From contig CAVXRD010000004.1 of NCBI GenBank assembly GCA_963764165.1, positions 672,001 to 736,000 of the forward strand: a stretch of DNA of 64,000 nucleotides, in the 5' to 3' direction. The stretch's first letter is position 1, and the number at the start of each line of letters is the position of its first letter. Source of the DNA: an uncultured Verrucomicrobiae bacterium. GTDB taxonomy: Bacteria; Verrucomicrobiota; Verrucomicrobiia; Limisphaerales; Palsa-1400. The notes below the pieces were generated by a model. That model did not search any database. It saw nothing but the letters and a program-made list of their open reading frames with translations, and had not been told where the DNA came from. Below are positions 11,496 through 63,499 of this stretch, piece by piece. Both the position numbers and the translations under genes were made by a program.

Positions 11496-11566
11496 AAGTC
11501 AGCAAGACGAACGAATACACCCTGGCGATCAGGACTGCAACCAAGCCACCCAACACTTAGATTTAA

Positions 11567-12181
11567 CTAAGGAATAACAATCGGAGCCCCGAGAGAAAAT
11601 GTGCCAACACACACAATCGGCCCTGTGTTTGTTTCGCTATAAGGCCCGGCCTCCCACGACATGGACCCATTAATGACGGCGTTGGTTGCACCATTTTGCG
11701 TTACAAAACTCTTATATGTAAATGCTGCCCCGGAGGAGTGGGAATTCGGACTTGTGTAAGTGGAATTATCAAACGTGTAAATGTAATCAACCCGGCGCTG
11801 CTGGGTTTGCGTCGCATTTGTTACAGCAGTGCGGCCGAGGGAGCCTTCCGAGCCATAATACAAACCCAATTCGGTGGTAAGGACCTGGCCGGTTGCATTC
11901 GAGATGACCTCAATAGTATCTCCCAGAGAATTCCCGTTGATATGGTAAACCAGTGAAATTGTGCTCAGATCGGTGATGTTCCCAAGGCGCGCGCGGTCAG
12001 CCAGCAACGTCTGATCTGTGATGTGTGTTCCTACAATTGTCCCGACGGCATTCGTCTGATAAGCCGTTCCGGAGAATTGAAACTTATAGAGGTATGGGCT
12101 GGTCGTTTGAGCGCTGCTTGAAGAACCCGCAAGGCCCAGACAGAATAAAATGATTGCAAGAAGTTTTTTCATGATTCCCAT
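11567..12181 (-). CDS. Secreted hypothetical protein, tandem paralogue 3
   Basis: Signal peptide MKKLLAIILFCLGLAG; aligns end to end with both neighbours. Confidence 0.85.
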   Translation of the reverse strand: MGIMKKLLAIILFCLGLAGSSSSAQTTSPYLYKFQFSGTAYQTNAVGTIVGTHITDQTLLADRARLGNITDLSTISLVYHINGNSLGDTIEVISNATGQVLTTELGLYYGSEGSLGRTAVTNATQTQQRRVDYIYTFDNSTYTSPNSHSSGAAFTYKSFVTQNGATNAVINGSMSWEAGPYSETNTGPIVCVGTFSLGAPIVIP

Positions 12182-12188
12182 TCGTTAA

Positions 12189-12809
12189 CTAATATACAGG
12201 CTGACCGAGTGTGAAATGACCGCTGCAAAGCATCGGCCCCACATTGGCTCGAGTTGGTATGACGTCCCAAAACAAAGTTCCGTCGATAAAGAGGTTTGTA
12301 TTGCCTTTGCTATCCGCCACAAATCGCTTCACCGTAAAGGCGCCGCCGAGCGATTCTCCGTTTTCGTAGGTGTAGGGAGTATTGCTGAAGGTGTAAACCT
12401 GATCCACGCGCCTTTGCTCGGTCTGCGTTGCATTGGTCACCGCGTAACGCCCGAGCGTTCCGCTCTCGCCTTGGTAAGCCGAGCCGAAATACAGACCAAA
12501 CTCCGTCACCAGGGTCTGCCCCGTGGCGTTGGAGATAACGTCGACCGTGTCGCCGTAAGGCGGTCCGCCGTTCAGGTGGTAAACGATGGAAATCGTGCTG
12601 AGATTGGTGATGCCGAGACTGGTGGCCTGGCTTTGCAGCAAGGTTTGATCGGTGATGGGCGTGCCGACAATGGTCCCTGCCCCGTTGGTCTGGTAGGACA
12701 TCCCGTTAAAGATGAACTTATAGGCCACATAGGACGACTGCGCATAGGCGCCAACTTCACTGATGGCCAATAATGCCAATGCCAGAAATAATGTCTTCGT
12801 AAGTTTCAT
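12189..12809 (-). CDS. Secreted hypothetical protein, tandem paralogue 2
   Basis: Signal peptide ending ...GAYA-Q; shared YKF.F.G..YQTN..G.IV.TPITDQ motif. Confidence 0.85.
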   Translation of the reverse strand: MKLTKTLFLALALLAISEVGAYAQSSYVAYKFIFNGMSYQTNGAGTIVGTPITDQTLLQSQATSLGITNLSTISIVYHLNGGPPYGDTVDVISNATGQTLVTEFGLYFGSAYQGESGTLGRYAVTNATQTEQRRVDQVYTFSNTPYTYENGESLGGAFTVKRFVADSKGNTNLFIDGTLFWDVIPTRANVGPMLCSGHFTLGQPVY

Positions 12810-42844: not shown

Positions 42845-43244
42845 GTGGCAAAAATTCTTATTGTCGAAGATCACGAGCCCATGCGCGCCATGATCCGGCT
42901 TATGGTGGCGCGTCCCGGGGATGAAGTCCGCGAATGCGCCGAAGGAGCGGCCGCGGCCGATGCCTATGCGGAGTTTCAACCGGAATGGGTCACGATGGAC
43001 ATTGGCCTCGGGGACGTGGATGGCCTGACAGCCACCAGTCAAATCAAGGCCCGGTTTCCAATGGTCAAGATAGTGATCGTGACCCAGTACCGATGACCAG
43101 ACCCTACGGGCCGCAGCTCTCGGCATCGGCGCCCGGGCCTACTTCCTCAAGGAAGATCTGGCGGGAGTTCGCGAACACTTAATGGGTGACGACCCTCCCG
43201 GCGGGCCTGTCGCCGCGGAGCGCAAAAAAATAAATCGCTTATGA
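42845..43244 (+). pseudogene. Frameshifted single-domain response regulator
   Basis: The REC frame ...IVIVTQY continues as DDQTLRAAALGIGARAYFLKEDL after skipping one base at ~43091 (tac-c-gat); the restored stop at 43242-44 overlaps the next ATG. Could be a sequencing error. Confidence 0.8.
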
Positions 43245-44581
43245 TGAAAAATCTCCACTTCCCAAAATTGTCGTTCCTGGCCGCCTCCGGCGAGATGACA
43301 GCCCGCCAGCCGGGCGTTCAAACAGGAGTACGAATCACAAATCGCTTTGCCGAGAAATTCAAATCCCTCATGAGCGCGATGGGTCTGCGCTGGATCGGAG
43401 CAATCTATGGCGGAGCCTTCGTCGTGGCGGCCGCTAGCGCGCCAGCCCAGAATCTGTTTGAGTCAGATTTGGGCAGCCAGCATGTCTATGAATTATCGAC
43501 AAACGCAACGAAGAGCACCTTCGCCTCCGGTCTGGATAACCCTCAAGGACTGGCTTTTAACTCCGCCGGCGCAATGTTCGAGGCGGATGCCTTGAGTGGC
43601 AACATCTATGAATTCACTCCGGGCGGAGTTCAAAGCACGTTTGCCACAGGATTGGGCAAGACCAGAGCCCTGGCCTTTAATCGCGCCGGCGGGACGGAGT
43701 CCAACAACTACACTCTGAGCGAGGCTGGCGGCTCCGTGATCGTGACCCCGTTGCCGGTCGTCTTGACGGGCACTAGGCTCTATGATGGCACCGCAACGGC
43801 CCAAGCGTCAATTTTGACCATCAGCAACGATTTGGACGGCGCAGATCTCACCTTGAGCGGCAGCGCCACCTTGGCCGACACCAATGCGGGGTCGCAAAGT
43901 GTCACTGACTTTACGGGCCTGGCCCTGAACGGCTCGGCCGCGACCAACTACACGCTGACCGGGGCCAGCGGCTCGGTGACGATCATTTCAACGCCTCTGG
44001 CCGTAACGCTGCCTGCGACAGCCATTGTTCCAAGCTCCGCCATTTTGAACGCCTCGGTGAGTCCCCAAGCCGCAGCCACAGCGGTCTATTTTGTGTATGG
44101 AGCCACAACCAATTACGGGAATTCGACCGGGGCCAAAAACATTGGCAGCGGAACCAGCGCGGTTAGCATCAGCAGCAGCATTACGAAACTTTTGCCCGAT
44201 ACCGTCTATCACTTTCAGGCTGTTGCCAGCAATGTTGTCGGGATAACCTTAGGCGGGGATTTAACCTTTGCAACCGCGCCCGCCGCGCCGACGGTTACTA
44301 ACCTGCCGGCTCTGGCAATCACCTCCAGCGGCGCGACCTTGGCAGCCTTGGTCAATCCTGAAGGCGACGAAACCACAGTTTCTTTTGTTTATGGCGCCAC
44401 CGCCGGATATGGCTTCACCAACGTCCTTCCCAATATCGGTGACACCAATGTTTTTCTTGCCATCAGCAACAGCATCACCGGTCTATTGCCAGGGACCTTG
44501 TATCACTACCAGGTGCTGGCCTCCAACGGCGTGGCCACAACTGTCGATCAAGCGAGCGATGCTGATCACCGATTGCGCTAA
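43241..44581 (+). pseudogene. Mosaic, truncated surface protein (partial NHL-like repeats, YDG domain, two FN3-like domains)
   Basis: STFASGLDNPQGLAFNSAG repeats break off abruptly into TESNNYTL...TRLYDGT; YFVYGATTNYG and YHFQAVASN domains follow; the tail switches to unrelated sequence at ~44543. Confidence 0.6.
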
Positions 44582-44883: not shown

Positions 44884-46449
44884 TTAGTCAAACTGGATGC
44901 GCGGCTCATGCCACGCGTGGCCGGTTTCGGCGAGCATCTCATCGGACGCCTCGGGTCCCCATGTTCCCGCGGAATAAAATTCCCGGTTGGTCAAGGGTTT
45001 GCCGCTCCAGGCGGCGCGAATGGTATCGACGATATTCCATGCGACTTCCACCTCATCGCGGCGGATGAAGAGCGTGGCGTCCCCAACCAAGGCGTCAAGC
45101 AAAAGACGCTCGTAGGCTTCCGGCGTGTAGGCGCCGAACTCGGCGTCGTAGCTGAAATTCATCCGAACCGGACGCACACTCACGTTCATACCGGGCACTT
45201 TGCCGTTAAAGCGGAGGTATATGCCTTCGTTAGGCTGAAAGCGAAGGGCCAGCGAGTTGGAATCCAAGGTTTGCCCGCATTGTGCCGCAAAAAGAACCGT
45301 CGGTGTGGGACGAAACTGAATGCGCGCTTCGCTGGCGCTGATGGGCAGATACTTGCCGGTGCGCACAAAAAACGGAACTCCCGACCAACGCCAGTTGTCG
45401 ATAAACAGCTTCAGTGCGACATACGTTTCCACGTCCGAATTCGCTTTGACTTTGGGTTCCTGTCGGTAGCCCGGCACCTGCTGGCCCTGGATCGCGCCGG
45501 CAAAATATTGGCCGCGCACGGCCTGGCGGCAAACATCCCGGGTCGCCAGCGGGCGGATGGATTTGAGCAGTTTGACCTTTTCGTCCCGGATTGCTTCCGC
45601 TTCGAGGGAAACGGGGGGTTCCATGGCCGTCAATGCCAGGACTTGGAGAATGTGATTCTGCACCATGTCGCGCAGGGCTCCCGCTTCCTCATAATAGCCG
45701 CCGCGGGCACCCACGCCGAGCTTTTCGCTGACGGTGATTTGCACGTGGTCGATGGAGTTGCGGTTCCACAATTGCTCGAAAATGGAATTGGAAAAGCGGA
45801 ACATCAATATGTTCTGCACGGTTTCCTTGCCTAGGTAATGATCAATGCGGCAAACCTGCTGTTCGTCGGCGTGCCGGGTCAATTCCGAATTCAGCGCCTG
45901 CGCCGAAGCCAGATCGTGGCCAAAGGGCTTTTCCACGACAATTCGCTGCCAGCCGCCGTTGACCTTCCCACGCTGCAATAATTGAGCGCCGTGCAACCGC
46001 TCGACAACGTCGCCAAACTGGCTTGGTTGCGTGGCCAAATAAAACAGGAGATTCTGGCGCAGCGGCGGCGATCCGAAGGAGACGAGCAGTTTCTCCAGCT
46101 TCTCGTAGGCGGCGGCGTCTGTCATGTCGCCCGTGCAATAATGCAAATTGGCTCCGAATGCGCGCCACACATCCTCGTCCACCGGTTTGGTGCGGGAAAA
46201 ACGATCCAGCGCCTCCCGGACTTCGGCGCGCCATGCTTCGTTCGTTTTTTCCCGCCGCGCAAAACCGATGATTCGGAAATCCGCGGGCATTTGCTTGTCT
46301 CTGAAAAGATTGTAGAAAGCGGGGAGAAGTTTGCGGGCCGTCAAATCACCGCTGGCGCCAAAAATGACGATGCCGCACGGCTCCACTGGGCGCTTTTGGG
46401 CTCCAATCTGACACACCATATTTTCGCGCACATTCTCGGATACGCTCAT
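44884..46449 (-). CDS. zwf: Glucose-6-phosphate 1-dehydrogenase
   Basis: IFGASGDL, VEKPFG, RIDHYLGKETVQN, RDMVQNH, NWRWSGVPFFVRTGK, AYERLL. Confidence 0.96.
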   Translation of the reverse strand: MSVSENVRENMVCQIGAQKRPVEPCGIVIFGASGDLTARKLLPAFYNLFRDKQMPADFRIIGFARREKTNEAWRAEVREALDRFSRTKPVDEDVWRAFGANLHYCTGDMTDAAAYEKLEKLLVSFGSPPLRQNLLFYLATQPSQFGDVVERLHGAQLLQRGKVNGGWQRIVVEKPFGHDLASAQALNSELTRHADEQQVCRIDHYLGKETVQNILMFRFSNSIFEQLWNRNSIDHVQITVSEKLGVGARGGYYEEAGALRDMVQNHILQVLALTAMEPPVSLEAEAIRDEKVKLLKSIRPLATRDVCRQAVRGQYFAGAIQGQQVPGYRQEPKVKANSDVETYVALKLFIDNWRWSGVPFFVRTGKYLPISASEARIQFRPTPTVLFAAQCGQTLDSNSLALRFQPNEGIYLRFNGKVPGMNVSVRPVRMNFSYDAEFGAYTPEAYERLLLDALVGDATLFIRRDEVEVAWNIVDTIRAAWSGKPLTNREFYSAGTWGPEASDEMLAETGHAWHEPRIQFD

Positions 46450-46765
46450 AAGAGGAATCAAGTTAGCCACACATTGAACCTCAGAACAATAAAGGATAAC
46501 GAGACTTGCCGTCAACAGCGGGCCTCATTCAGATTGCCGGCGATTTCCCAATGCGCTTTAAATTTGAACCGCAATCAGCGCATCAGCGTTGAAGGGGCGC
46601 AGAAAGTTTGATTCAGGCTCGAAAATATTAAAATTTCCCTTTTTATTCCTGCTTTAAAACGATAGAAAGTTGACGTTGTAACCAGATGTCCCAGCGTGTC
46701 TAAGAATGAACCACGAACGAACTCGGTTTCCGGCAGATGCTCTGCCGATGTTATGATCATTGCCT

Positions 46766-48715
46766 ATGAATCCTAACCGTGACCTCTTCAAGCTAATTTC
46801 CACCGTTTCGCTGTGCGGCATATTATTGACTCTGGACTTTTCCGCCATGGCAGGCCCCGATGCGGGTGATCAAGCCGAAGTCATCCAGCAGGCCGCCAAG
46901 TATATCCTGGCGGCGAACAAATCCGAGGAAGCCCCGGCTGCGGGAGGAAAGGCCATTGATGCAGATGCTGAGCACGCAAAACTGTTTGTGGAGAACAAGT
47001 ACCCCTCCGCCGCCACTTGCCGGACTTGCCACCCAAATCATTACAGAGAGTGGTCGGTTTCCGCCCACGCCTACGCGCAATTGAGCCCAGTCTTCAACGC
47101 CATGCAGGCCACCATCACTCGGAACACTGCCGGCGCCAATGGAGATTTTTGCATTCGCTGCCACGATCAGGTGGGGATGAATTTGGGAGAATCCACCTTT
47201 AAGAGCAACATGGACCGGCACCCGACTTCGCGGGAGGGCATCACCTGCATTGTCTGCCATCGGTTGCGCAACGACTATGGCAAGGTCAGCGGACGGTTCG
47301 CCTTGGTCACAGGCGACATTCTTCAGCCGGTTTACGGACCGACAGGCGATGCGGAACTCAAGCGCGTTCTTTCCGAGCCCAATACTTATCGCGTCGTGAC
47401 GAAAGAAGGCGAAGCGGGCAGGAAAATTCATACCGACATCGAAAAATTCCCCGCTCTTCGGACCCCTGCGTTTTGCGGCACCTGCCACGATGTCAATTTG
47501 TTCAATGGATTCCGCTTGGAAGAAGCATTCAGCTCGTTCAAGAATTCGGCCGCCGCCCACCGGGGCGAGACCTGCCAGGATTGCCACATGGGAAAAGTGC
47601 CCGGCATCAAATCCGGCTACGCGGAAGAGCCCGCCGCCATCGTTGGCGGCGTGCCGACGAAACCCCGCCGCCGGACCAATCACATGTTTGCGGGACCGGA
47701 TTATTCCATCGTGAACCGCGGTTTCTTTCCGCATAACGACAAGGCTGCCGCCCTGGCCAGCATGCGGGAATGGCTCACGTTCGATGACAAGGCAGGTTGG
47801 GGAACTGATAAGTTTGAGAATAGCGTGCCCAAGGATTATAAATTCCCACCCCGCTGGACCTCCGTGGATGATCGATACGATGCGCGAGCCATTCTCAATG
47901 AGCAGTACGGGCTCCTCGGGGAAATCAAGAAACAACGAGTGGCCATTCTGCGCCAAGGCTATCAATTGGGCGATTTGAAAGTCCTCCAAGCGAATTCCAA
48001 GGGCCTCAAGTTCAAGATACAAGTCCACAATGGCACCGATGGCCACAACGTTCCCACTGGATTCGATGCGGAGCGCATTAGCTACATGCAGGTTTTTGTG
48101 ACCAACGCCGCTGGCAAATTAGTTTTCCAATCGGGCGACCTCGATCCCAACGGCGACGTGCGCGACATCCATTCCTCCTACGTGGAAGAAGGCAAGCTTC
48201 CTTGGGATAAGTATCTTTTCAAATTGCAATCCCCGTTCATCACCACCGAATTGCACGGCGGGGAGCGCGAACAGGTTCTGGCGGTAAATTACTCCATAGA
48301 TCCGCTGCCTTTCATTCGCCCTCCAGGTTCTGCCATGAATCTAACCGGCCGTTCGCCTGGAGCGCGGATCCAGAGGCGCGGGATGGAAGCATTCAACAGC
48401 CGCTGGCCTGAATATAAGGTGAAGGCCTCGGAATTGACCGATCCCGGTCCATATACAGTCAGAATTCGCTTCCTGGCGGGCATGGTCCCTGTGAACCTCA
48501 TCACCGAAATCGAAAAGGCCGGGTTTGATTACAGCATGTCCCCTCGCGAAGTGGCCGACGCGATCAAAAACGGGCAGACTCTGTTGTATGACAAGCAAGT
48601 GATGCTGCAACTCGACGGAACCCAGCCGACGATCGACTTGTCCAAAATTATGGATAAAGACGTGCTCGTTGATTCAACCAACACTGTCTCATCTTCCTCC
48701 TATGCGCAGAAGTAA
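46766..48715 (+). CDS. Periplasmic pentaheme c-type cytochrome (c554/c552-like heme domain plus a large C-terminal beta-rich domain)
   Basis: Signal peptide; CRTCH, CIRCH, CIVCH, CGTCH, CQDCH; GHNVPTG. Confidence 0.88.
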   Translation: MNPNRDLFKLISTVSLCGILLTLDFSAMAGPDAGDQAEVIQQAAKYILAANKSEEAPAAGGKAIDADAEHAKLFVENKYPSAATCRTCHPNHYREWSVSAHAYAQLSPVFNAMQATITRNTAGANGDFCIRCHDQVGMNLGESTFKSNMDRHPTSREGITCIVCHRLRNDYGKVSGRFALVTGDILQPVYGPTGDAELKRVLSEPNTYRVVTKEGEAGRKIHTDIEKFPALRTPAFCGTCHDVNLFNGFRLEEAFSSFKNSAAAHRGETCQDCHMGKVPGIKSGYAEEPAAIVGGVPTKPRRRTNHMFAGPDYSIVNRGFFPHNDKAAALASMREWLTFDDKAGWGTDKFENSVPKDYKFPPRWTSVDDRYDARAILNEQYGLLGEIKKQRVAILRQGYQLGDLKVLQANSKGLKFKIQVHNGTDGHNVPTGFDAERISYMQVFVTNAAGKLVFQSGDLDPNGDVRDIHSSYVEEGKLPWDKYLFKLQSPFITTELHGGEREQVLAVNYSIDPLPFIRPPGSAMNLTGRSPGARIQRRGMEAFNSRWPEYKVKASELTDPGPYTVRIRFLAGMVPVNLITEIEKAGFDYSMSPREVADAIKNGQTLLYDKQVMLQLDGTQPTIDLSKIMDKDVLVDSTNTVSSSSYAQK

Positions 48716-50204
48716 GAGGCTCTCAATATGTTTGACTGACGCGCTCCGTGAACTCGCGTGTTTGTGCTTCATCGCCGCTTTGACCGCTGCCAAAGCGGAT
48801 GACACCAATGACACCGCCCGTTTCTCCGATAAACCGGTTCCGCTGGCGACAAATACATTTCTGCAGCGCCCGCCGCCGCTCATAGAGTTGGGGGATCATT
48901 TCCTGGGCAACGGCAACCTGCAAAAAGGAATCAAGCTCCCAACAGGAGAAGTGATTTCACCCAACTTCTGGGTGTTTGGCACGATGCGCTCCGCTGTCCA
49001 GACATTCGACCCTGGGAAAGGCGAACCTCGCATCTCCGAATGGGCCAATCGCCTGGACATTTATGGCAATCTTCAGTTCACACCAACTGAACGCCTTGTG
49101 GTTGGGTTCCGCCCGCTCGACCGCCAATATACCCAAAACGGAGAAGTCAGCGATGTTTTTACCGGCTATCGGATTGAGCCGGTGCATTCGCCGGGTTCTC
49201 TTGTGAATGGCCAGGGAACTGTGGAAGCGTTCGGCGCCACGCCTCGCACGCTCTTCTTTGAGGGCGAATTCGGTGAAATGTTTCCCACGCTTGATAAGCA
49301 CGACAAACTGAGCCTCGACTATGGTTTTTCGATTGGCCGCCAGCCGCTGGTCATGCAGGATGGCCTCCTTGCCAATTCCTATGACGTGGACATGCTCAGC
49401 ATCACGAGAACGTCCATGCAGATTCCGGGGGGGTCGACTTTGCGCGTATCGGCCATCGCGGCTTGGAGTGATATCCAGGGACAGAATTACAATGTGCCGG
49501 CAAATATCCCAACATACAATTATCAGGACGCCCATTTTTTCGGCTTTGACGGAGCAGCGGATTTCCCGCGGAGCACGATTGAGGCAAACGTTCTATATGG
49601 AACGTCTGGGAATCACGGGGACGGACTTTACGCTGGCCTGGCATCCATTCAACGGTTTGGGAAGCTCAACACCACTTTCCGGGGAGTCACTTCGGTGGCG
49701 GTGGATGGCGACAGCAGCGCTACAGGGGTGAGCAGAGTGGCGACGGGCACGCTGTTGCTGAGCGAGCTGTCGTATCCGATGCTGGGATCGAAGGATTTTG
49801 TTTACATGGATGCCTACTGGGGCATCGACCGCTTCACCTCCATCGTACGCGACTCCGACGCTGGGGGGCCTCTGGGGAATGTTGGCATTCTGACGGCGGC
49901 CACGGGGCTCGGATCGTATGCGGCGCCTCTTGGAGATCAGCCGGAGCACTCCGCAGGGGGGGCGCTTGGTTACCAGATGTTCATCGGCGCTCGGCGAAGA
50001 CAGCAGTTGGTTTTCGAAATTGGCGGGCGGGCGCAAACGCAAACCCCCAAGTTTGAGCGCCAGGAACCAGCCGAGGGATTTGGCGTGCAGTACCAGCAAG
50101 CCGTTGGCCAGCGGTTCATCATGGTTCTAGAGGGCTTTGCCGTAAACCGCAGCGACTATGGAGGATCCTATGGCACGCGCATGGAATGGGTGACCAAATT
50201 CTGA
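48702..50204 (+). CDS. Putative outer-membrane beta-barrel (porin-like) protein
   Basis: Signal peptide; alternating amphipathic strands (RLDIYGNLQF, GGALGYQMF, GFGVQYQQ); terminal strand ending in Phe (TRMEWVTKF). Confidence 0.65.
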   Translation: MRRSKRLSICLTDALRELACLCFIAALTAAKADDTNDTARFSDKPVPLATNTFLQRPPPLIELGDHFLGNGNLQKGIKLPTGEVISPNFWVFGTMRSAVQTFDPGKGEPRISEWANRLDIYGNLQFTPTERLVVGFRPLDRQYTQNGEVSDVFTGYRIEPVHSPGSLVNGQGTVEAFGATPRTLFFEGEFGEMFPTLDKHDKLSLDYGFSIGRQPLVMQDGLLANSYDVDMLSITRTSMQIPGGSTLRVSAIAAWSDIQGQNYNVPANIPTYNYQDAHFFGFDGAADFPRSTIEANVLYGTSGNHGDGLYAGLASIQRFGKLNTTFRGVTSVAVDGDSSATGVSRVATGTLLLSELSYPMLGSKDFVYMDAYWGIDRFTSIVRDSDAGGPLGNVGILTAATGLGSYAAPLGDQPEHSAGGALGYQMFIGARRRQQLVFEIGGRAQTQTPKFERQEPAEGFGVQYQQAVGQRFIMVLEGFAVNRSDYGGSYGTRMEWVTKF

Positions 50205-50212
50205 GTGATCTT

Positions 50213-51463
50213 ATGGACCTTTCCAAACTGCTAGTTGGAGCCGGAGGAATTTTGTTTGTTTTGGTGGCGATTGATTTGGCAATGCTTTGTTACACAAGTT
50301 TCAGCCGCGCTGCCGCGATGGGGGCCGCGCGGGAAAATGAAGGTGAATTGCTTTCCGCGCGGCTGGCCATGGCCCGCCTGCAACTCAAGCGGCAGGAGAA
50401 CATTGGATCGTGGAATGGGACGCGGAAGTTTACGGTCGATAAAGTAGTGACGGAATGCGCGGATGTCGCATCCTACTATTTGGTGCCTCACGACAACAAG
50501 CCGTTGCCGCACTTTTTTCCTGGGCAGTTCCTCACGTTTGAATTGAGCATCCCGGGGCAGCGCAATCGCGTCGTTCGCTGCTACTCGCTCTCAGACCGCC
50601 CAAGGCCCGACTACTATCGCGTCACCATCAAACGCGTTCCCGCGCCGCCCGACGGCAAGCCGGGATTGGTCTCCAATTTCTTCCATTCCTCCGTCAAGGC
50701 GGGCGACATTTTGGACGTCAAGGCGCCGAGTGGCGGCTTCTATCTGGATACAAGCCGGCTAACACCAGTGGTGCTGCTGGCAGGCGGCGTGGGCGTGACT
50801 CCGATGGTGAGCATGGCCAACGAAATCATGACCAATACTCCGCAGCGCGAAACATGGTTTTTCTTCTGCGTGCGCAATGCGCTGGATCACATCATGAAAG
50901 AGCAGTTGGAAGAATTGGCAAAAGCCAATGACAAGCTCCGCCTTCACGTCTGCTACTCCAAGCCAGGCAAGACCGACAGCGCTGGCAGGGACTATCGTCA
51001 CGAAGGCAGGCTGGATTTGGCTTTGCTGAAGAAGGAACTGCCGTCCAACAATTTTGATTTCTTCATGTGCGGCCCGGGTGCGATGATGAGCGACCTGCAC
51101 GAGGGGTTGCTGGAATGGGGCGTTGACGAGGAACGAATTCATTTGGAAGCATTCGGGCCTGCCAGTGTCAAGAAAACCGCTCCACCCGCCCCGGCATTGG
51201 CCGAACCGCAACTTAAGGTCACATTCTCGCGTTCCAATTGCGAAGCCGCGTGGTCCGGCAAAGAGGAAAACTTGCTCGACATGGCGTTGGCTCAAGGGGT
51301 ATCGATCAGTTCCGGTTGCCGTGCTGGAAATTGCGGCAGTTGCAAAACTGCCGTCAAATCTGGCAAAGTGAAGTATCGCAAACGCCCCGGTTGTGACGTT
51401 GAATCGGGAAGTTGCCTCACATGCATTGCGGTGCCGGAGAGCGATTTGTGCCTTGATGCGTAA
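50213..51463 (+). CDS. Membrane-anchored FAD/NAD(P)H oxidoreductase with a C-terminal [2Fe-2S] ferredoxin
   Basis: N-terminal TM helix; RCYSLS, GLVSN, AGGVGVTPM, CGPGAMM, EAF; CRAGNCGSC...C. Confidence 0.9.
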   Translation: MDLSKLLVGAGGILFVLVAIDLAMLCYTSFSRAAAMGAARENEGELLSARLAMARLQLKRQENIGSWNGTRKFTVDKVVTECADVASYYLVPHDNKPLPHFFPGQFLTFELSIPGQRNRVVRCYSLSDRPRPDYYRVTIKRVPAPPDGKPGLVSNFFHSSVKAGDILDVKAPSGGFYLDTSRLTPVVLLAGGVGVTPMVSMANEIMTNTPQRETWFFFCVRNALDHIMKEQLEELAKANDKLRLHVCYSKPGKTDSAGRDYRHEGRLDLALLKKELPSNNFDFFMCGPGAMMSDLHEGLLEWGVDEERIHLEAFGPASVKKTAPPAPALAEPQLKVTFSRSNCEAAWSGKEENLLDMALAQGVSISSGCRAGNCGSCKTAVKSGKVKYRKRPGCDVESGSCLTCIAVPESDLCLDA

Positions 51464-51511
51464 AGGATTAGTTGGAATCGTGGATCGAACAATTTTTAAA
51501 TTATTACTGAA

Positions 51512-52504
51512 ATGAATACGCGAAAATTGGCATTGGCCGTCAGTCTGGTGATCTCCCTCGTTGCGCTCGACTTGCGCCATCCCGCCCAGGCAGCCGAGGA
51601 TCTTTACCATGCCGATCCGGCCAAGGTTATGGGGCCGGAAAGCTGCAATGAATGCCACGCCCCGATGGTGGAAGCCTGGAAGCTGACTCACCATTACGAC
51701 ACGTTCAACTCGATGCATCGGAAGCCGGAGGCGAAGGATATCGCCACGAAAATGGGCATGCGCCGCATCAAGGACGAAAGCCTTTGCCTCAAGTGCCATT
51801 ACACCGACAAAACCGATGACACTGGCAAAGTTGTGCCTATCTCCGGCATCTCCTGCGAATCCTGCCATAGCGCCGGCAAGGATTGGATCAAGATCCATAG
51901 CGCCACCAACGAACCCGGCCATCTTGAAAAAGCCGAAAAGCTCGGGATGCTTTTGCCCAGCAATTTCTATGCGGTTGCCGCCAACTGCTTCTCTTGTCAC
52001 ACGGTGCCAGAAGAGAAACTTGTCAATGTTGGCGGACACAAGGCCGGCAGTGATTTCGAGTTGGTTTCGTGGCTGTCGGGCGAAGTCCGCCACAATCTTC
52101 AAAAATCCGGCGGCAAAGTGAATGCGGAAATTCCGGTCGAGCGCCGCAGGATGTTTTATATCATTGGCCGCGCCCTTGATTTGGAATTCAGCCTGCGCGG
52201 CCTGGCCAAAGCGACCGAGGATGGCGCGTATGCAAAGGCGATGCTCGCGCGGGTTGCCGACTCTCAGGCGAAGATGGCAGAAATCGCAAAAGCGTCCGAT
52301 TTGCCGGAGGTCAAGAAGATGCTGGATACCGTCAAAGCGGACGATTTGAAACCCGGAAACGCGGACAAGGTAACGAAAATGGCTGATGAAATAAGCGGGA
52401 TCAGCAGCGGATTGGCAAAGAGCCAGGACGGATCCAAGCTCGCCTCGGTTGACGGGCTGATTCCGGGACCGGATAAATACAAAGGGACCCCTTACAAACC
52501 GTAG
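51512..52504 (+). CDS. Periplasmic tetraheme c-type cytochrome (c554-like)
   Basis: Signal peptide; CNECH, CLKCH, CESCH, CFSCH. Confidence 0.88.
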   Translation: MNTRKLALAVSLVISLVALDLRHPAQAAEDLYHADPAKVMGPESCNECHAPMVEAWKLTHHYDTFNSMHRKPEAKDIATKMGMRRIKDESLCLKCHYTDKTDDTGKVVPISGISCESCHSAGKDWIKIHSATNEPGHLEKAEKLGMLLPSNFYAVAANCFSCHTVPEEKLVNVGGHKAGSDFELVSWLSGEVRHNLQKSGGKVNAEIPVERRRMFYIIGRALDLEFSLRGLAKATEDGAYAKAMLARVADSQAKMAEIAKASDLPEVKKMLDTVKADDLKPGNADKVTKMADEISGISSGLAKSQDGSKLASVDGLIPGPDKYKGTPYKP

Positions 52505-52670
52505 CTGGGTTCAATGGGGCCGGCCAGGTATGAACTTTTGCCGCCGCGGTGGCGTCATTCACAGGCTGGTCAGACGGGTTGCGGATGCTTTGCAGACCCC
52601 CAACTGCATGGCGTCCCTTCGCGCAAATTTAACTCGGATCAATCGAATTTAATGACGAAGCTGTCTGGTT

Positions 52671-54413
52671 ATGGCCGAAGATTCTCAAGGCATTAAGCGC
52701 CCAAGACGCTGGGATGTTCCATTCCAAAGCGAGTTGGCGGAGACGGCGGCCAATCCGATGTCCGAACAGGACGTGGAGCGGTTGATGCAAATCCCTCTTT
52801 TTAAGAAGATGGATCCGAATCGTTTCCCGCCGACCACGCCGTTGCGCGACATTCTTATCAACGACGGCCGGTTGCGCCGTTTCAAATCCGGGGACATTAT
52901 AGTCCGCCAAGGGGACTATGGAAATTCGGCCTTCATTGTGCTTTCTGGTTCGGCGACTGTCGTTCTCGACAAACTCGGAGACGAAGTCACTGGGCGCAAG
53001 CAGCCGACCCGCAAAAGCTTTTTCGACGCCCTGGCGCAGTTGTGGACCAACCCTAAACTGCCTGAAGTTCGCAACCTGACGGAACGCCGCGCTCCGCGGC
53101 CGGTTGGCCAGACGGACATCATCCCCAAGTCCGAAGCGGTGTTCGTCCAAGACATCAACGTCATCATCAAGGACAAGAAAAAAGTGAACTTGCCGGCGGG
53201 CGAATTGTTCGGTGAAATCGCCGCCCTAAGCCGCACGCCGCGCACGACGACCGTGATCGCCGGCGCCGATTCGGAGATGCTGGAGATTCGATGGCAAGGA
53301 TTGCGGGAAATCCGAATGCATGCCCCGCAATTCAAAGCGTACGTGGACAAACTCTACCGCGATAACAGCCTTATAAATCATCTGCGCGAAACCGCGATGT
53401 TCAGCCGTCTGGACGACGCGGCCTTGGAGCGCGTCGCCGCCTCGACCGAGTTCCTGACGTTTGGAAATTTTGAATGGTATGCCGCCTACTCAAAAATTCG
53501 CGAGGCCACCGCTTCGGAACGAATCCACGAAGAGCCCATTGTCGCGCAGGAAGGCCATTATCCCAACGGCGTTTACCTGATACGCAGCGGATTCGCCCGC
53601 TTGAGCGAAGCGTATAATAATGTCGAACGCACTGTCAGCTATTTGGGTCGCGGACAGACGTTTGGTTTTGAGGAAGCCGCGACAAATTGGAAGAAAAAGT
53701 CGGATGTGCCATTTCAGCGCACGCTCCGGGCGGTCGGCTATGTGGACGTTTTGTTTGTGCCAACGTCCGTCCTGGAACAGCATGTTTTCCCAACGATTCC
53801 CGCCGCTGAGATTCCGCAGGTGGAAGAGCGCGCTGGCAGCCGCGGATGGAGCCCGGAAAGCCCCGACACGAAAATCAGCAGCGAGATGATGGAATTCGTC
53901 GTTGAGCAGAGGTTCATCAACGGAACCGCTGCCATGATCATCGACATGGAGCGCTGCACGCGCTGCGACGATTGCGTCAGAGCCTGCGCCGCCACGCATG
54001 ACAATAATCCGCGCTTCCTGCGGCATGGGCCTATTCAAGACGGGTTCATGATCGCCAACGCCTGCATGCACTGCCAGGATCCTGTCTGCATGATTGGATG
54101 CCCCACTGGAGCGATCCACCGCGAATCCGCGCATGGCCGCGTCGTTATCAACGATCAGACTTGCATCGGATGCGCCACCTGCGCGAATAGTTGCCCTTAC
54201 AATAATATTCAAATGGTGACCGCGCGAAATAAAGATGGCCGCCCTTTTTTCGACCAAGCCACGAATCAACCAATTCAGAAGGCTGCCAAATGCGACCTTT
54301 GTTCAACGCAGATCACCGGCCCGGCGTGCGCCAACGCCTGCCCGCATGACGCTCTTGTCCGGATGGATATGAGGAGCGTCGACAAATTGGCGGAATGGAC
54401 GGGCCGCCGATGA
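52671..54413 (+). CDS. Protein with two cNMP-binding domains fused to a DmsB/NrfC-type 4x[4Fe-4S] ferredoxin
   Basis: IVRQGDYG...FGEIAAL..TPRTTTV; second domain QEGHYP...GQTFG; CTRCDDCVRAC, CMHCQDPVCMIGCP, CIGCATCANSCP, KCDLC...CANACP. Confidence 0.9.
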   Translation: MAEDSQGIKRPRRWDVPFQSELAETAANPMSEQDVERLMQIPLFKKMDPNRFPPTTPLRDILINDGRLRRFKSGDIIVRQGDYGNSAFIVLSGSATVVLDKLGDEVTGRKQPTRKSFFDALAQLWTNPKLPEVRNLTERRAPRPVGQTDIIPKSEAVFVQDINVIIKDKKKVNLPAGELFGEIAALSRTPRTTTVIAGADSEMLEIRWQGLREIRMHAPQFKAYVDKLYRDNSLINHLRETAMFSRLDDAALERVAASTEFLTFGNFEWYAAYSKIREATASERIHEEPIVAQEGHYPNGVYLIRSGFARLSEAYNNVERTVSYLGRGQTFGFEEAATNWKKKSDVPFQRTLRAVGYVDVLFVPTSVLEQHVFPTIPAAEIPQVEERAGSRGWSPESPDTKISSEMMEFVVEQRFINGTAAMIIDMERCTRCDDCVRACAATHDNNPRFLRHGPIQDGFMIANACMHCQDPVCMIGCPTGAIHRESAHGRVVINDQTCIGCATCANSCPYNNIQMVTARNKDGRPFFDQATNQPIQKAAKCDLCSTQITGPACANACPHDALVRMDMRSVDKLAEWTGRR

Positions 54414-55219
54414 CGCTCGTCGCGCGCCGATATCTTGGCTGGGGGGTTTTGCTGGCGGCTGCTGGCGCTGCATGGCTTGGAGATTTTGCTTTGCGGGTTC
54501 ATTTGCGGCGGAGCGAGCTGCGGACCGGCGTCGCCCTTTTCGCGACAGTCATTTTATTGACGCTTTTCAACGCGCGGAAAAAGCTGCCCTTCCTCCCGCT
54601 GCTTCGCGCTTCCACATGGATGCAAATTCATATTTACGCGGGGTTGTTTAGCTGCGTTTTGTTCGCGCTCCACGTCGGGTGGAGATTTCCGCGCGGCACC
54701 CTTGAGACGGTCCTCGCGGTGCTGTTTTGTTTGGTGTCGGCTAGCGGCGTGGTTGGGCTGGTGCTTTCCCGGCGGTTGCCTTCCCAGCTTAATACCTCTG
54801 GGGAAAACGTCATATTTGAGCGAATCCCGGCCTTGCGCGCGGCGCTGAGGAGCGAAGTGGAAGCGTTAGTTCTCGAATCCGTCGCTAAAACTCAATCCTC
54901 CACCATCGCGGATTTCTACCAGCTTAAGCTGCAAGGCTATTTTGCCCGCCAGCGCCATGTCTGGCAGCACGTCGCCGGATACGATAAACCAATCTTCAAA
55001 CTGGTTTCCGAAGTGCAGGCGCTCGATCGCTATCTAAACCTGGAGGAGCGTGGCATCATGACATCTGTGCTGGAGAAAGTTTTGGCCAAAAACCACCTGG
55101 ATGTCCAACTCGCCCGGCAAGGCCTGCTCAAAGGCTGGCTCTTTGTGCACATCCCACTCACCTACTCAATGATTCTCGTGGCAACAGTGCACGGGTTCGT
55201 GGCGTGGAAACTTTCATGA
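54410..55219 (+). CDS. Integral membrane protein with 4 intramembrane His (possible di-heme b cytochrome)
   Basis: About 5 hydrophobic helices; WMQIH, ALH, WLFVH, TVH; ATGA overlap. Confidence 0.7.
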   Translation: MTLVARRYLGWGVLLAAAGAAWLGDFALRVHLRRSELRTGVALFATVILLTLFNARKKLPFLPLLRASTWMQIHIYAGLFSCVLFALHVGWRFPRGTLETVLAVLFCLVSASGVVGLVLSRRLPSQLNTSGENVIFERIPALRAALRSEVEALVLESVAKTQSSTIADFYQLKLQGYFARQRHVWQHVAGYDKPIFKLVSEVQALDRYLNLEERGIMTSVLEKVLAKNHLDVQLARQGLLKGWLFVHIPLTYSMILVATVHGFVAWKLS

Positions 55220-55229
55220 GGCTTCCCTG

Positions 55230-57367
55230 ATGCGCCGCCTCCAGGAATTCGGTTTCGAACAGAGCTCTTACGAGCGGCCCAATCAAAAGTGGATCTGCGG
55301 GCGCGCATGCGAGGGCAAATGCTGCCTGGCCGGGCCGGATGCCAAGGGCAACTGCAACGCTTCCGCCGAATGCCGCCCCTTGCGAAAGGGCGACCGCTGG
55401 CAATGCGCGCGCCCGGCATTTCTTGGCGGCCCGTGCGCCGACGGCCCGCTGCCGGATGGCAAATGCTGCCGGGCCATTCCCAAATGCACACCGATTCGCA
55501 GCTTGCGTTCCTGGCGGGGAATTGCGGTCTCTCTCGTTGTGGCCATCACACTGGGATTTCTCTTGCTTGCCTTCGGCTCGCGGCGTGGAAGCCAAGTGCT
55601 CTCCCCTGGTGAGCTCACATTTTCGCACAGCTTCATGGGCGACGATTGCACAAGCTGCCATGGCGCGGCGGGCGGGCGTCCGGCCGCTTGGGGGGCGGTG
55701 ACAGCAGGCTCGATAGGAGCCCACGACAACAGCGCGCTTTGCCTCAACTGCCACAGCGTTGGCGCCGCGCCTCTCCAGCCGCACTCCTTATCGTCTGCGC
55801 AGCTGCAAAGCTTGAATCGTTCGCTTGTCAATCGGGACGGGTCGGGCAAGCCCCCCCTCACCTTGGCGCTGGCATCATTTGTGTCGCACCCGAATCCGCA
55901 CGGCGAAGAGGGCGCCGCAGGCCTCGCATGCGCATCCTGCCACAAGGAGCATCGCGGAAAGGATGCGGATCTCCGGAAACTTTCCAACGATCAATGCCAG
56001 AACTGCCACGCCACTCAATTCAAGAACTTTGCCAGCGGACATCCGCCATTTTCCCACTATCCCACGACCCGCCGCACGCGCATCATCTTCGACCATCTGT
56101 CTCATTTGAACACGCATTTTAAGGATGCGTCTGTGGCGAAATTCGCTCCCGGCTCCTGCCTGGATTGCCACCAAACCGACCTGCGGGGCCAAACAATGGT
56201 CGTCAAATCGTTTGAAGCAGCGTGCGCGTCCTGCCATGACGACCAGATCAAGGGCAAATCCGCTGTCAAGACTGGTATCCCGTTCATTAACATTCCTCGC
56301 ATGGACGACCGCGCGCTCTCTGGCGAATTTTCCATTGGCGAATGGCCCGAAGATGCGGATCAGCCAATTACGCCGTTTTTGCGATTTCTTCTTTCGTCCG
56401 ATCCAGCGATGCGCGATTCCCTGGCGAAACTCAAGGGAACTGATCTTTCAAATTTGCCAAAGACCAATGCGGTAATATTGAAAGCCGCCCAGACGGTCGC
56501 TTGGGGCGTGAAATCACTCATCCTCGATCTCGAAACGCAGGGGCAGCCTGAGATGGTGAAGCGCGCCGCCTCGTCCTTGAATCGCACACTTTCCGATCAC
56601 GAAATTGAGGGGCTCGTGGCATTTCTCGGCACAGAATCGCTGCGGGCCGCGTTCCAATCAGCCTTTCCGAATCTGCAAAAGGAACTTCTCGATTACCGCA
56701 AGAACTCAAAGCCCGCCGCGACGAAATTGGTATCGTCACCAGAATTGGCGGCTCCCGGTCCGATTAAGCCTCCGCCCGCAGATGTGCAGGTGGGACAAGG
56801 CGGTTGGTATAGCGCGGATGGTTCGTTCACGCTATCCTACCACCCGCGCGGACACGCAGACCGTTTTCTCAGCTCGTGGATGAGCTTGACGGTGGACGCC
56901 AGCAAGACGACTGATCCGGCGAGCGCGAGTGCGCTCTTTAACGACCTTTCCGCGCCGAAGGCGGTTGGCCTCTGCGCCAAGTGCCATAGCATTGACGATG
57001 CGCCAGTGAAATTGGTCAATTGGATGCCGCTGGAACCCGATCAAACAGAGCACGGTTTCACCCGCTTCGCGCATTCGCCACACCTCAGTTTGCTCGACAA
57101 CAGGGGATGTTTGACTTGCCATTCGTGGGCGACATCAGATGGAACGGGCAAAGATTCCTACGCCGCCGCATTCGATCCAGGCCAGCGCGATCCTTCCATA
57201 TTTCACAGCAATTTTCAAACGATCGACAAATCCCGGTGCGCGAGCTGCCACCAGCCCCACCAAGTGCGTGAGGATTGCCTGCTCTGCCACAATTATCACA
57301 TCGGAAACTTCAAGCCCGTCGTGGCTCACGCAAAGTTCATTCCCGCCACGCCCGCCAGAATTGCTAA

Positions 57368-57371
<4 letters not shown>
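55230..57371 (+). CDS. Membrane-anchored decaheme c-type cytochrome with a Cys-rich N-terminal domain
   Basis: 10 CxxCH (CTSCH, CLNCH, CASCH, CQNCH, CLDCH, CASCH, CAKCH, CLTCH, CASCH, CLLCH) after a TM helix; 11 Cys before the TM helix. Confidence 0.9.
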
Positions 57372-60067
<2,696 letters not shown>

Positions 60068-60979: not shown

Positions 60980-63499
60980 CTAAATTTCTGGTGCACGCTC
61001 AATGGCCGCACGCTTGCCGATATTCTTAATTGCGCTCGCAAGTGCCTTTTGTTTGTCTTCCTCAAATGCCGCCGAAACAGCGGGCATAATGTCGTCGGCG
61101 TCATTCAGTAAGAATTCACCCTTTTCGCGGGCTTCATCTGTCTGAAGATACCGGACAAAAGCGGTCGCACGATCCAGTCGCGACGTCATCCGGTTTCGAC
61201 GTTCAACATTCGTTCCCGCAATCCGTTCACTAACAGCAGCTTTGCAGAAGGAATGATAAAGGCTTTCGTCTGCCAAGCCGCAATCCAACGAAACCATTTC
61301 CAAATACGTAAACGTCCGGGAAAGATGTTCCAGCATATAAATACCGAACGCGGTTATTCGAATCTCATCAGCGTAAATTAATTCTTTACCGTCGGTCCCA
61401 GCTTTTTCAACCGAATACGAATCCAAGCGGTTATTGGCTTCAACAAGCCCATGACGCAAAAGCACATCAAGCGCAGATTCGCAGTCCTGGCGCATTCCGA
61501 ATTTACTTTCGAATTCGTCGATCAGACCATCCACGCGCCAATACCCACCCGAATCTGGCGACATTCCGGTGCCATGTCTTAACATCCGCAAAAGCCGAAC
61601 CGTTGTGAAATGTGAACCGTGCTGGGGCGTTCTACATTGATAAATGTTCGGTATTAAGCTCTTATTCTCGTCGTAATTAAACCTTTGTGGCACCATCATC
61701 GGCTTAATTACTTGATGGCTGATCACCGTCCAGTGAATGTTGTTAATCATCTCTTCCACATGGGTATATCCTGAGGATACAAACTGACCGAAAAACTCCA
61801 GGGCAAGACGCGTGTTATCGCGGGAGCATTCTTCGAGAAACCGCCTGAATGCGTTGTTCCTGTCGCGAAACTGGAGCAGGCACGCAATAAAAAACTTCTT
61901 TAGTTCTTCAAAGGGAGCGTCTTCAGGAAGAGTCTCTAATATGCTGGTGCGCCCCTGCGCCGCAAGGTCCGTGATTACCATCCGAATTCTTTTCGTGAAG
62001 ACGCCTGCCAAATCTGGCGCGGCGAGATGATACCCTGCATTCTGATACGCGTCCAACACCCCCACCGTTCGCGCCCGACAATATCGCTCTTCCCGCATAG
62101 AGATAATCCCGACACACTCTAATTCTCGAGAAATGTTCTGCGCCAAGAGAAAACAATGATCCTGCAAAACGGGCGGAAGTTGATCCGTGTTGTCAAAAGC
62201 AATGATCAGCTTCTTGCCATTCCGAAGCCAGTAATTTTTGAGTCGCTGAGCCACATAAACTTTGTCTTCCTTCCATTTGACAGCCAATGCATTCCGCGCG
62301 CGAATGAAGCCTCCACTTCCCATTCCGTACCCAGCAAGCTCCTGTTTCTTAGCAATCTCAAATTTATCTTCAAAAAGCTGCAAAAGACTCTCCATTGAAC
62401 CATCCAATAGCCCGTCCTGATCTAAGGCAATAGTAATTTTGTTCCAAATGTATGTTGTTAGATCATTTTTTTCCTGTGGGGCCCGAAGGCAATCGACAAT
62501 GATTGGAAAGCCACGAAGCACCAGCTGTGTTGGCGCATCGTGATATAGCAATCGCCTTAAAAACGTCGATTTCCCGGCTCCTTTGCCTCCATATAATATT
62601 AAAACCTCGCCGCCGGAATTCCTTTGAAGTGACCGTGCGATTCGGTCACTCAATTTTCCACCCGTTCTCACATTCGCAATATTCTCGGCCCCATCGGCTT
62701 TGAAAAAAGTTGTTAGATCGTCCGTTAGCCGTGTTTTCATTCCTTGCTCAACTTGCCGCGTTCCACGGGCAAAGACGTAACAATGATCCATCATTCTTTT
62801 GTCAGTGGAGGCTATTTCTCCAAAATATTTTCGGGAAATCGGCTCAAGGAATTTTGCAAATGGGTTCTTCTGTACGGTGGCATCATAGTGTGTGATACCA
62901 TTTTTTGCATAATATAACTCACGACCGACGTCCCGCCCGAAACCAAAGGCCAACTGAAGTGAACGGTCACTCGTTATTGCCTGGCACCCAAGGAGGTTAT
63001 AAGCCTCTGTAAATTTATCAGAAAAAAAGGCTAAATCGTATATTACCAAGGCGTCGGCATCCATGAAATGCTTTCCAGGAATGAAACTCCGAAAAATTAT
63101 AAACTCGTGGCCATTCGTCACACATGCGTATTGGCATCCGATGTCTGGACAATATTGCGCTGCCTGCTGTACTGCACTGGCAGTGCTTGCGTCGGTCGCA
63201 AGTGTCCGCAGGCGAACCGTCCGAACATCGTGCCGTTGTTTACCCGCCCTGGTTGGCAATTTGAAATAGTCGCCCTCTCTTTTCGCCTCGATTAGCAAAA
63301 CGGAACGATCAGCTTTGTCGCGTAAGACATAATCGATGTAACCGGGATGCACATGCTGCTCGCACTTTACGCTTTCGCGAGGCCAAGCCAGAACTTCATG
63401 CAAAAGAGGATCAACGATCTGGTGTCTCGTGTCGGCTTCATTAAGGTCACGAGTGCCAAATTTTTTTACAAGCTCCGCAGCGATTTCCCGTCCCGTCAT
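60980..63499 (-). CDS. HsdR_N-like PD-(D/E)XK nuclease fused to a P-loop NTPase; candidate defence protein
   Basis: NEADTR..IVDPLL..VL.W...YIDYVL...LLIEAKR...YACVTNG.EF; Walker A GGKGAGKST; Walker B LIIAFDNTDQ; visibly more AT-rich than the flanks. Confidence 0.8.
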   Translation of the reverse strand: MTGREIAAELVKKFGTRDLNEADTRHQIVDPLLHEVLAWPRESVKCEQHVHPGYIDYVLRDKADRSVLLIEAKREGDYFKLPTRAGKQRHDVRTVRLRTLATDASTASAVQQAAQYCPDIGCQYACVTNGHEFIIFRSFIPGKHFMDADALVIYDLAFFSDKFTEAYNLLGCQAITSDRSLQLAFGFGRDVGRELYYAKNGITHYDATVQKNPFAKFLEPISRKYFGEIASTDKRMMDHCYVFARGTRQVEQGMKTRLTDDLTTFFKADGAENIANVRTGGKLSDRIARSLQRNSGGEVLILYGGKGAGKSTFLRRLLYHDAPTQLVLRGFPIIVDCLRAPQEKNDLTTYIWNKITIALDQDGLLDGSMESLLQLFEDKFEIAKKQELAGYGMGSGGFIRARNALAVKWKEDKVYVAQRLKNYWLRNGKKLIIAFDNTDQLPPVLQDHCFLLAQNISRELECVGIISMREERYCRARTVGVLDAYQNAGYHLAAPDLAGVFTKRIRMVITDLAAQGRTSILETLPEDAPFEELKKFFIACLLQFRDRNNAFRRFLEECSRDNTRLALEFFGQFVSSGYTHVEEMINNIHWTVISHQVIKPMMVPQRFNYDENKSLIPNIYQCRTPQHGSHFTTVRLLRMLRHGTGMSPDSGGYWRVDGLIDEFESKFGMRQDCESALDVLLRHGLVEANNRLDSYSVEKAGTDGKELIYADEIRITAFGIYMLEHLSRTFTYLEMVSLDCGLADESLYHSFCKAAVSERIAGTNVERRNRMTSRLDRATAFVRYLQTDEAREKGEFLLNDADDIMPAVSAAFEEDKQKALASAIKNIGKRAAIERAPEI

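Follow-up and report, generated by a model that had tools for sequence, protein, structure and literature searches.

The operon ptdABCDEFG was named by Elbon et al., who described its function as completely unknown (bioRxiv 10.1101/2023.11.21.568154). Here we describe a seven-gene cluster which, judged by the described parts and their order, is a complete copy of this operon; it occupies positions 46766..57371 of the window, by which we mean the whole 64,000-nucleotide stretch analysed, from an uncultured Verrucomicrobiae bacterium (GenBank assembly GCA_963764165.1, contig CAVXRD010000004.1, positions 672,001 to 736,000 of the forward strand). Parts of its architecture recur in other systems. 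In MtrAB, a multiheme cytochrome made in the periplasm is bound to an outer-membrane barrel, as is predicted for PtdA and PtdB, and the 26 strands of MtrB surround a 10-heme chain (PMC7198977). NOX and Fre-MsrQ-MsrP share with ptd a flavin reductase and a diheme membrane protein that carry electrons from a cytoplasmic reductant to a periplasmic acceptor (PMC5676040). In Geobacter, extHIJKLMNOPQS encodes a porin together with a pentaheme enzyme of the pentaheme cytochrome (PHC) family and other cytochromes, and acts on small oxyanions (PMC5877670).

The cluster encodes the seven described products in A-to-G order: a pentaheme cytochrome with a beta-sandwich, a porin, an FAD/NAD(P) oxidoreductase and a tetraheme cytochrome, followed by a protein with cyclic nucleotide monophosphate (cNMP) and Fe-S domains, a ferric-reductase-like membrane protein and a decaheme cytochrome. 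Its PtdA is homologous to the T. tepidum pentaheme c552, with the C-terminal beta-sandwich. An initial annotation, made from this DNA alone, had recognised no named complex; the cluster had in fact been named already, though not characterised (bioRxiv 10.1101/2023.11.21.568154). This preprint is the only description of the operon returned by our literature search, whose coverage left out most subscription journals. The hosts in the preprint are marine or saline Alpha- and Gammaproteobacteria, Nitrospirales and Planctomycetes, whereas the closest relatives of this copy are Verrucomicrobia; the preprint's supplements may list more genomes, including Verrucomicrobia. We found homologous full clusters in Alphaproteobacteria, Gammaproteobacteria and Planctomycetes, all groups named by the preprint. 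The preprint counts two [4Fe-4S] clusters in PtdE, and the 16 invariant Cys reported below would indicate four. The barrel size, the PtdA–PtdB complex, the fusions, the cyclase link and the active-site analysis go beyond the preprint's account, as far as the available part of it extends. We also considered the porin–multiheme cytochrome cluster described in Verrucomicrobia (PMC5615132), and rejected it as a different system, with at least 20 strands and an octaheme cytochrome.

Our leading interpretation, in which our confidence is about evenly balanced, is that the ptd operon consumes NAD(P)H to supply electrons to PtdA, a periplasmic reductase docked at a pore, with a cyclic nucleotide as a possible switch. 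Electrons would pass from NAD(P)H to the FAD and [2Fe-2S] cluster of PtdC, through the four [4Fe-4S] clusters of PtdE and the two hemes b of PtdF to the ten hemes of PtdG, and from there by way of the shuttle PtdD to heme 2 of PtdA. PtdA, placed under the small PtdB pore, would reduce a small molecule that comes in from outside, and cyclic nucleotide bound to the first cNMP domain of PtdE would switch the flow. Outward flow is helped by both the redox drop and the membrane potential, and therefore such a chain would spend energy and need a switch. More tentatively, Ptd may be a different class of porin–cytochrome complex, in which an 18-strand pore brings an outside substrate to the Glu-flanked catalytic heme of a docked or sometimes fused pentaheme enzyme, with electrons from a quinone-free chain that starts at NAD(P)H and has an Fe-S relay under the direct control of cAMP or cGMP.

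PtdA and PtdB at the outer membrane

PtdB had been read initially as a beta-barrel-like protein ending in Phe, and its model is indeed a barrel. Built from 133 sequences, 125 of which have the C-terminal Phe, the model of the 468-residue chain had a mean predicted local distance difference test score (pLDDT) of 91 and a predicted template modelling score of 0.87. We read 18 strands from the secondary structure after joining two short segments as strand 3, and we therefore write ~18. The best structural match was Campylobacter MOMP (5LDT; Z 25.8, root-mean-square deviation (rmsd) 3.4 over 348 aligned residues), followed by 3T24 (Z 25.7), and the best matches include OpdQ, OccAB3, AlgE and chitoporin; we take these named proteins to be 18-strand solute channels. 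MtrB was absent from the 50 structural matches listed, an absence that is not proof. PtdB belongs to no family in Pfam or NCBIfam, and neither PtdB nor any other protein of the host genome matched PF11854 (MtrB_PioB). Its conserved residues are Arg, Asp and Glu, while His, Met and Cys all remain below 80% conservation. PtdB-like proteins form 969 clusters at 50% identity, spread over several phyla. An N-terminal SPOR domain in two further relatives of PtdB agrees with an N terminus on the periplasmic side.

PtdA and PtdB were predicted to form a complex, with an interface score (ipSAE) of 0.87 in three runs and 0.00 for the best of three controls. Among solved complexes 116 of 157 reach the mark used for this score, as do 2 of 215 mismatched pairs, a calibration that is only roughly valid with the alignments used here. 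The runs agreed in at least 90% of contacts, with pLDDT of at least 87 for the partners. In this prediction, PtdA docks on the periplasmic face of PtdB through a heme-free insertion (residues 489-546), which supplies 37 of its 90 interface residues. By our strand assignment, the contacts on PtdB include 30 of 47 periplasmic-turn residues and only 5 of 145 outer-loop residues (loops 3 and 7). In the predicted complex the lumen is occupied by a heme-free segment of PtdA, and stretches that flank heme 2 and the Glu252 loop lie against the PtdB rim; the models of the complex and of PtdA (pLDDT 86) were built without hemes. Conservation is higher at the PtdB interface (0.70) than elsewhere in PtdB (0.56), a comparison that is not independent of the model, since both derive from the same alignments.

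Support that does not depend on the model comes from single-chain PtdA–PtdB fusions and from co-occurrence. The fusions, 1062-1114 residues long, form four clusters at 90% identity (P0362, P0390, P0391, P0392), each with the five-heme PtdA part followed by PtdB. P0362 was the one fusion among 149 new representatives, and all three matches of a search among long proteins were fusions. Three of the four, whose clusters hold 6, 18 and 15 members, are 75-84% alike, and the fourth is ~52% alike; with several related clusters of multiple members, a lone sequencing error is an unlikely explanation. One fusion-cluster member of 1871 residues, P0393, extends into PtdD-like domains, possibly as the artefact of a frameshift. 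A PtdE-based scan of GTDB genomes yielded 41 loci in Verrucomicrobia, Planctomycetes, Alphaproteobacteria and Gammaproteobacteria, and ptdA adjoins ptdB in all 23 that have both genes. Among 301 genomes of the phylum, PtdA and PtdB matches fell in the identical seven.

The same components could form an extracellular conduit, with Fe(III), humic quinones or electrodes taking up the electrons that leave through PtdAB; this was the initial annotation's reading and was also raised by Elbon et al. A porin does occur together with multiheme cytochromes, PtdA and PtdB bind each other in the model, and a structural link has been drawn between the PHC family and an archaeal nanowire cytochrome (PMC11976967). 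If a soluble shuttle or chelate entered the pore, the distinction between a conduit and a pore-fed reductase would blur. We nevertheless regard a conduit as unlikely. MtrB sheathes its heme chain across the membrane with 26 strands, and PtdB has ~18, no conserved His, Met or Cys, and an interior predicted to be filled by a heme-free part of PtdA, so the MtrAB-type analogy drawn initially fits poorly and an Occ/AlgE/MOMP-type barrel is the better description. The operon encodes no outer-surface cytochrome, and a lipobox is present in only 4 of 120 PtdA homologues. The electron feed would differ as well: MtrAB is served by a quinol dehydrogenase, and ptd would be served by NAD(P)H via Fe-S clusters and heme b.

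The proposed inner chain and its putative cyclic nucleotide site

Within the inner membrane and cytoplasm the initial assignments held up well. PtdC has the Pfam domains FAD_binding_6, NAD_binding_1 and Fer2, with conserved flavin and nucleotide residues and all four Fer2 Cys across 39 homologues (39/39), and a hydrophobic helix at the N terminus of all 39 listed, as expected for a membrane-anchored FAD/NAD(P)H-[2Fe-2S] reductase. PtdE matches cNMP_binding (Pfam, E value 7.5e-24), and its ferredoxin part matches HycB/DmsB-type ferredoxins; Pfam and NCBIfam bear out both PtdC as a reductase and PtdE as a cNMP-ferredoxin. Each of its 16 Cys is invariant in 50/50 homologues, a number sufficient for the four [4Fe-4S] clusters proposed at first, and its sequence has neither a signal peptide nor a membrane helix. 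Of the two cNMP domains in that proposal, the second proved degenerate.

PtdF, noted initially as a membrane protein with four His, has these as two pairs, each 14 residues apart and invariant in 32/32 homologues, and 14 residues is the spacing of diheme cytochromes b. PtdF is therefore likely to be a diheme cytochrome b. Its nearest Atlas cluster is named ferric-reductase-like and has no common Pfam family. No Pfam or NCBIfam family matched above cut-off, DUF4405 appearing only below it, and despite the two His pairs PF01794 gave no match at E 0.05. This sets PtdF apart from the NOX and Fre-MsrQ-MsrP modules, to which ptd also adds the four-cluster cNMP ferredoxin and c-type cytochromes. We know of no cNMP-ferredoxin or NAD(P)H reductase in the Geobacter ext cluster.

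The two remaining cytochromes appear to be carriers, because conserved His suffice to close every heme. PtdD, whose four CXXCH motifs and match to 1BVB (E value 3.5e-6) agree with the proposed c554-like cytochrome, has His61, His129, His176 and His194 each in 40/40 homologues, so that all four hemes are likely bis-His. PtdG, whose ten CXXCH motifs and transmembrane (TM) helix agree with a membrane-anchored decaheme, has ten further His conserved in 44-47 of 47 homologues and likewise probably ten bis-His hemes. Of 49 homologues, 33 have at least 9 Cys in the N-terminal domain of PtdG and 16 have 0-4; this Cys-rich domain, a possible metal site, is cleanly lost in Anderseniella and several Pirellulaceae. 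One locus without ptdD (L024:12582-16232) encodes a PtdG variant of 1216 residues with 16 heme motifs. Of the wire from NAD(P)H to the decaheme that had been proposed, the inner half (reductase, four Fe-S clusters, diheme b and decaheme) is thus supported by sequence and conservation, and the MtrAB-type outer end fits poorly.

The clustering of ptd genes is beyond chance. E-F-G are adjacent in 40 of the 41 loci and D-E-F-G in 35, and the complete set, which the initial annotation had proposed to look for elsewhere, recurs in 23 loci in six different arrangements; many loci lacking some of the seven genes are short contigs. The hosts are diverse and patchily distributed, and include the cultured Botrimarina hoheduenensis Pla111 (L041). 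In the same 301 genomes, PtdE-like matches occurred in 13 (11 of them close); both halves of the operon were present in 4 genomes, a close PtdE without an A/B match in 7, and A/B without PtdE in 3. In one genome where PtdE was not found (G249), ptdAB is directly followed by a 573-residue protein with Ferric_reduct, FAD, NAD and 2Fe-2S (Fer2) domains (L053:6558-8279), apparently a one-gene NOX-like stand-in for PtdC-G. This replacement and the split occurrence of ptdE and ptdAB suggest that C-(D)-E-F-G is an electron-export core and A-B an exchangeable terminal module.

Several related loci deserve mention. Proteins of 1157-1305 residues combining LVIVD repeats with a decaheme lie near ptdG at L043:16528-20000, L046:396-4313 and L051:15802-19701; their carriers are three of the seven genomes with PtdE and no ptdAB match, and they are a possible alternative terminal module. 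Two loci (L049 and L050, in G300 and G048) have a distant cNMP-ferredoxin, a larger membrane protein and a decaheme, with ptdA-D not nearby. In G290 (L044, L045, L057), ptd genes are broken into pieces at three places, through sequencing errors or decay.

One of the two PtdE cNMP domains looks able to bind nucleotide. We took as the sign of a functional site the Gly-Glu and Arg of the phosphate-binding cassette, a motif that we assume from PKA, PKG and CRP. The first domain has Gly181 (50/50), Glu182 (50/50), Arg191 (49/50) and Ser/Thr192 (48/50), and in the second the cassette is absent, with Glu at the matching site in only 2/50. The commonest neighbour family outside ptd, found by BLAST at 10 of 52 loci, was a class III nucleotide cyclase, with PF00211 in eight of nine proteins scanned. 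In planctomycetes, six of these genes face ptdC head-to-head; in Roseibium, three are placed 4.8 kb downstream, and one is inside a verrucomicrobial cluster; the linkage thus represents three lineages rather than ten events. The host genome of the present copy has four cyclases elsewhere. In L056 (genome G247), PtdE and PtdC each carry an FHA domain (8642-10654 and 10834-12507), which hints at phosphothreonine control.

These neighbours also bear on a sensory role, in which the chain would report an outside oxidant or reductant to the cytoplasm with only a small flux, PtdE and the neighbouring cyclase and FHA proteins doing the signalling. The six head-to-head cyclases, the FHA fusions and the diverse, patchy hosts would suit such a role. 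We think it improbable: a cNMP domain normally serves as an input, an output domain is absent from PtdE, the chain can be substituted by a NOX-like protein free of cNMP domains, and ptdAB were reported to be highly transcribed in the marine genomes, and the family in an oxygen-deficient zone (bioRxiv 10.1101/2023.11.21.568154).

Our preferred reading, a switched chain feeding PtdA, places the flow of electrons outward, by analogy with the NOX and Fre-MsrQ modules, which run in that direction (PMC5676040). The reverse is a little less probable still than a sensor. PtdA would then oxidise an outside donor such as a sulfur compound, hydroxylamine or Fe(II), and the chain would reduce NAD(P)+. All of the carriers are reversible in principle, and c554-like cytochromes and heme packing of the HAO/NrfA type are used in oxidative chains. 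Reports of ptd in Nitrospirales (bioRxiv 10.1101/2023.11.21.568154) would also fit. Against it, electrons moving to NAD(P)+ would oppose both the redox potential and the membrane potential, no quinone- or ion-coupled subunit is evident, and NOX/MsrQ-type modules run the other way.

Heme 2 of PtdA

PtdA had been annotated as a pentaheme cytochrome, in agreement with its five CXXCH motifs and its c552-like model. The only clear fold match was T. tepidum c552 (5ZE8; Foldseek E value 5.4e-12; Z 20.1, rmsd 3.5, 351 aligned residues); MccSep was not among the matches listed in the fold searches, and its structure 9WT8 gave a weak sequence match (E value 0.007). These proteins have been grouped, with ExtKL, in one PHC family (PMC11976967). 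With this family (5ZE8, Geobacter MccSep/ExtKL 9WT8 and PHCs of cable bacteria) PtdA shares five hemes, an Ig-like domain and four conserved distal His positions. It differs in having Glu for the heme-2 Cys, Phe for selenocysteine (Sec), three extra conserved His, and ~190 extra residues, which include the predicted pore plug. Residues 457-464 of PtdA (window about 48134-48157) form a GDLDPNGD motif, matched in 114 of 120 homologues, that resembles a calcium-binding loop.

In MccSep, heme 2 is catalytic; its ligand Cys239 and the nearby Sec325 are both essential (bioRxiv 10.1101/2025.11.18.688581). Glu252 of PtdA, with a one-residue uncertainty relative to MccSep, occupies the site of c552 Cys241 in 125/125 homologues, the role of that Cys being assigned by analogy with MccSep. 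At the Sec site PtdA has Phe433, with Phe in 117/125 homologues and Leu in 8/125. PtdD has an invariant His in the loop equivalent to the Glu252 loop. The replacement of Cys by Glu and of Sec by Phe, together with this His of PtdD, suggests that heme 2 of PtdA is open. Because Glu replaces the sulfur-handling Cys/Sec pair, we would guess at a peroxide or a nitrogen oxide as the substrate, and only weakly. A polysulfide or selenite reductase like MccSep, with the porin serving as ExtI does for the ext cluster, would fit the shared pentaheme and Ig-like fold and the porin neighbour, and is highly improbable given that all Cys of mature PtdA belong to its CXXCH motifs and that it lacks both the heme-2 Cys ligand and the Ig-loop Sec or Cys of MccSep, residues essential there.

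Several observations weigh against a pore-fed, switched reductase. The three extra His of PtdA (His70 in 125/125, His323 in 119/125 and His469 in 109/125) could close heme 2 and make PtdA a plain carrier, and Glu252 is replaced by Ala in two distant porin-linked homologues. The PtdA interface is not more conserved than the remainder of the protein (0.70 vs 0.73), and in the predicted complex the PtdA insertion may block the pore instead of lining a channel. A ptdAB match is absent from 7 of the 11 sampled genomes with a close PtdE, and therefore PtdAB is not the sole outlet. Finally, a cyclase lies beside neither the operon in this window nor 42 of the 52 loci.

The locus and its wider meaning

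All seven open reading frames are on the + strand, with the same boundaries as in the initial annotation, whose co-oriented, mostly tightly packed genes with 5, 4 and 10 heme motifs we recovered: the CXXCH motifs of ptdA, ptdD and ptdG sum to 19, and the successive intergenic gaps are -14, -19, 48, 166, -19 and 10 base pairs. Every ptd gene is present as a single copy in the host genome, which also encodes cytochrome c assembly proteins. As had been remarked for the cluster, the partners typical of DMSO-reductase-type or Nrf complexes are absent: neither a molybdopterin subunit nor NrfD is encoded among the seven genes or in the scanned flanks. Promoter and terminator scans of the region found no more sites than in shuffled sequence (3 vs 5.0; 10 vs 14.2).

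Table 1. Features of the ptd locus, in window coordinates
Feature	Position	Strand	Description
ptdA	46766..48715	+	Exported pentaheme cytochrome c, 649 residues, C-terminal Ig-like domain, c552/MccSep/PHC fold; candidate terminal enzyme
PtdA Glu252	47519..47521	+	In the loop after heme 4; 125/125 in alignment; aligns with 5ZE8 Cys241, a free Cys
PtdA residues 489-546	48230..48403	+	Heme-free Ig-domain insertion; predicted to reach into the lumen of PtdB from the periplasmic side
ptdB	48702..50204	+	Outer-membrane beta-barrel, ~18 strands, Occ/AlgE/MOMP-like (model pLDDT 91)
ptdC	50186..51463	+	Membrane-anchored FAD/NAD(P)H-[2Fe-2S] reductase (Pfam)
ptdD	51512..52504	+	Exported tetraheme c554-like cytochrome; 1BVB match, E value 3.5e-6
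ptdE	52671..54413	+	Two cNMP-binding domains and DmsB/HycB-type ferredoxin, 16 Cys
PtdE first-domain phosphate-binding cassette	53208..53252	+	Gly181, Glu182, Arg191, Thr192
ptdF	54395..55219	+	Inner-membrane protein (hydropathy); His pairs His79/93 and His252/266
ptdG	55230..57371	+	Membrane-anchored decaheme cytochrome c; TM helix 97-115
PtdG N-terminal Cys-rich domain	55287..55499	+	~10 Cys, ahead of the membrane helix; optional in the family

Two flanking genes were considered and rejected because neither occurs in 52 related loci: a divergent glucose-6-phosphate dehydrogenase (window 44884-46515, - strand; one of four copies in the genome), as the NADPH source of the operon, and a downstream GH63/MGH1-like hydrolase (57368-60067, + strand), as part of it. 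Elsewhere in the window are a 446-residue protein with YDG and fibronectin-III-like repeats, apparently a surface-protein fragment (43241-44581, + strand), and an 839-residue protein that weakly matches HsdR-N and NTPase, encoded in a stretch of lower GC content (0.50), a possible defence gene (60980-63499, - strand). Next to a cytochrome c assembly gene, the host genome has a second multiheme cluster (G000:C1:11400-33300), with 9, 4, 9, 11 and 6 heme motifs.

What makes these results interesting is a specific architecture open to testing, not that the cluster was discovered, and the fusions, the one-protein NOX-like variant and the cultured carrier make ptd testable now. Direct action of a second messenger on an Fe-S relay would, if true, be an unusual control of electron flow. 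Genome surveys widely count clusters of porins and multiheme cytochromes as extracellular electron transfer; should PtdAB prove to be a pore-fed enzyme, such an annotation would be wrong for a family that spans several phyla.

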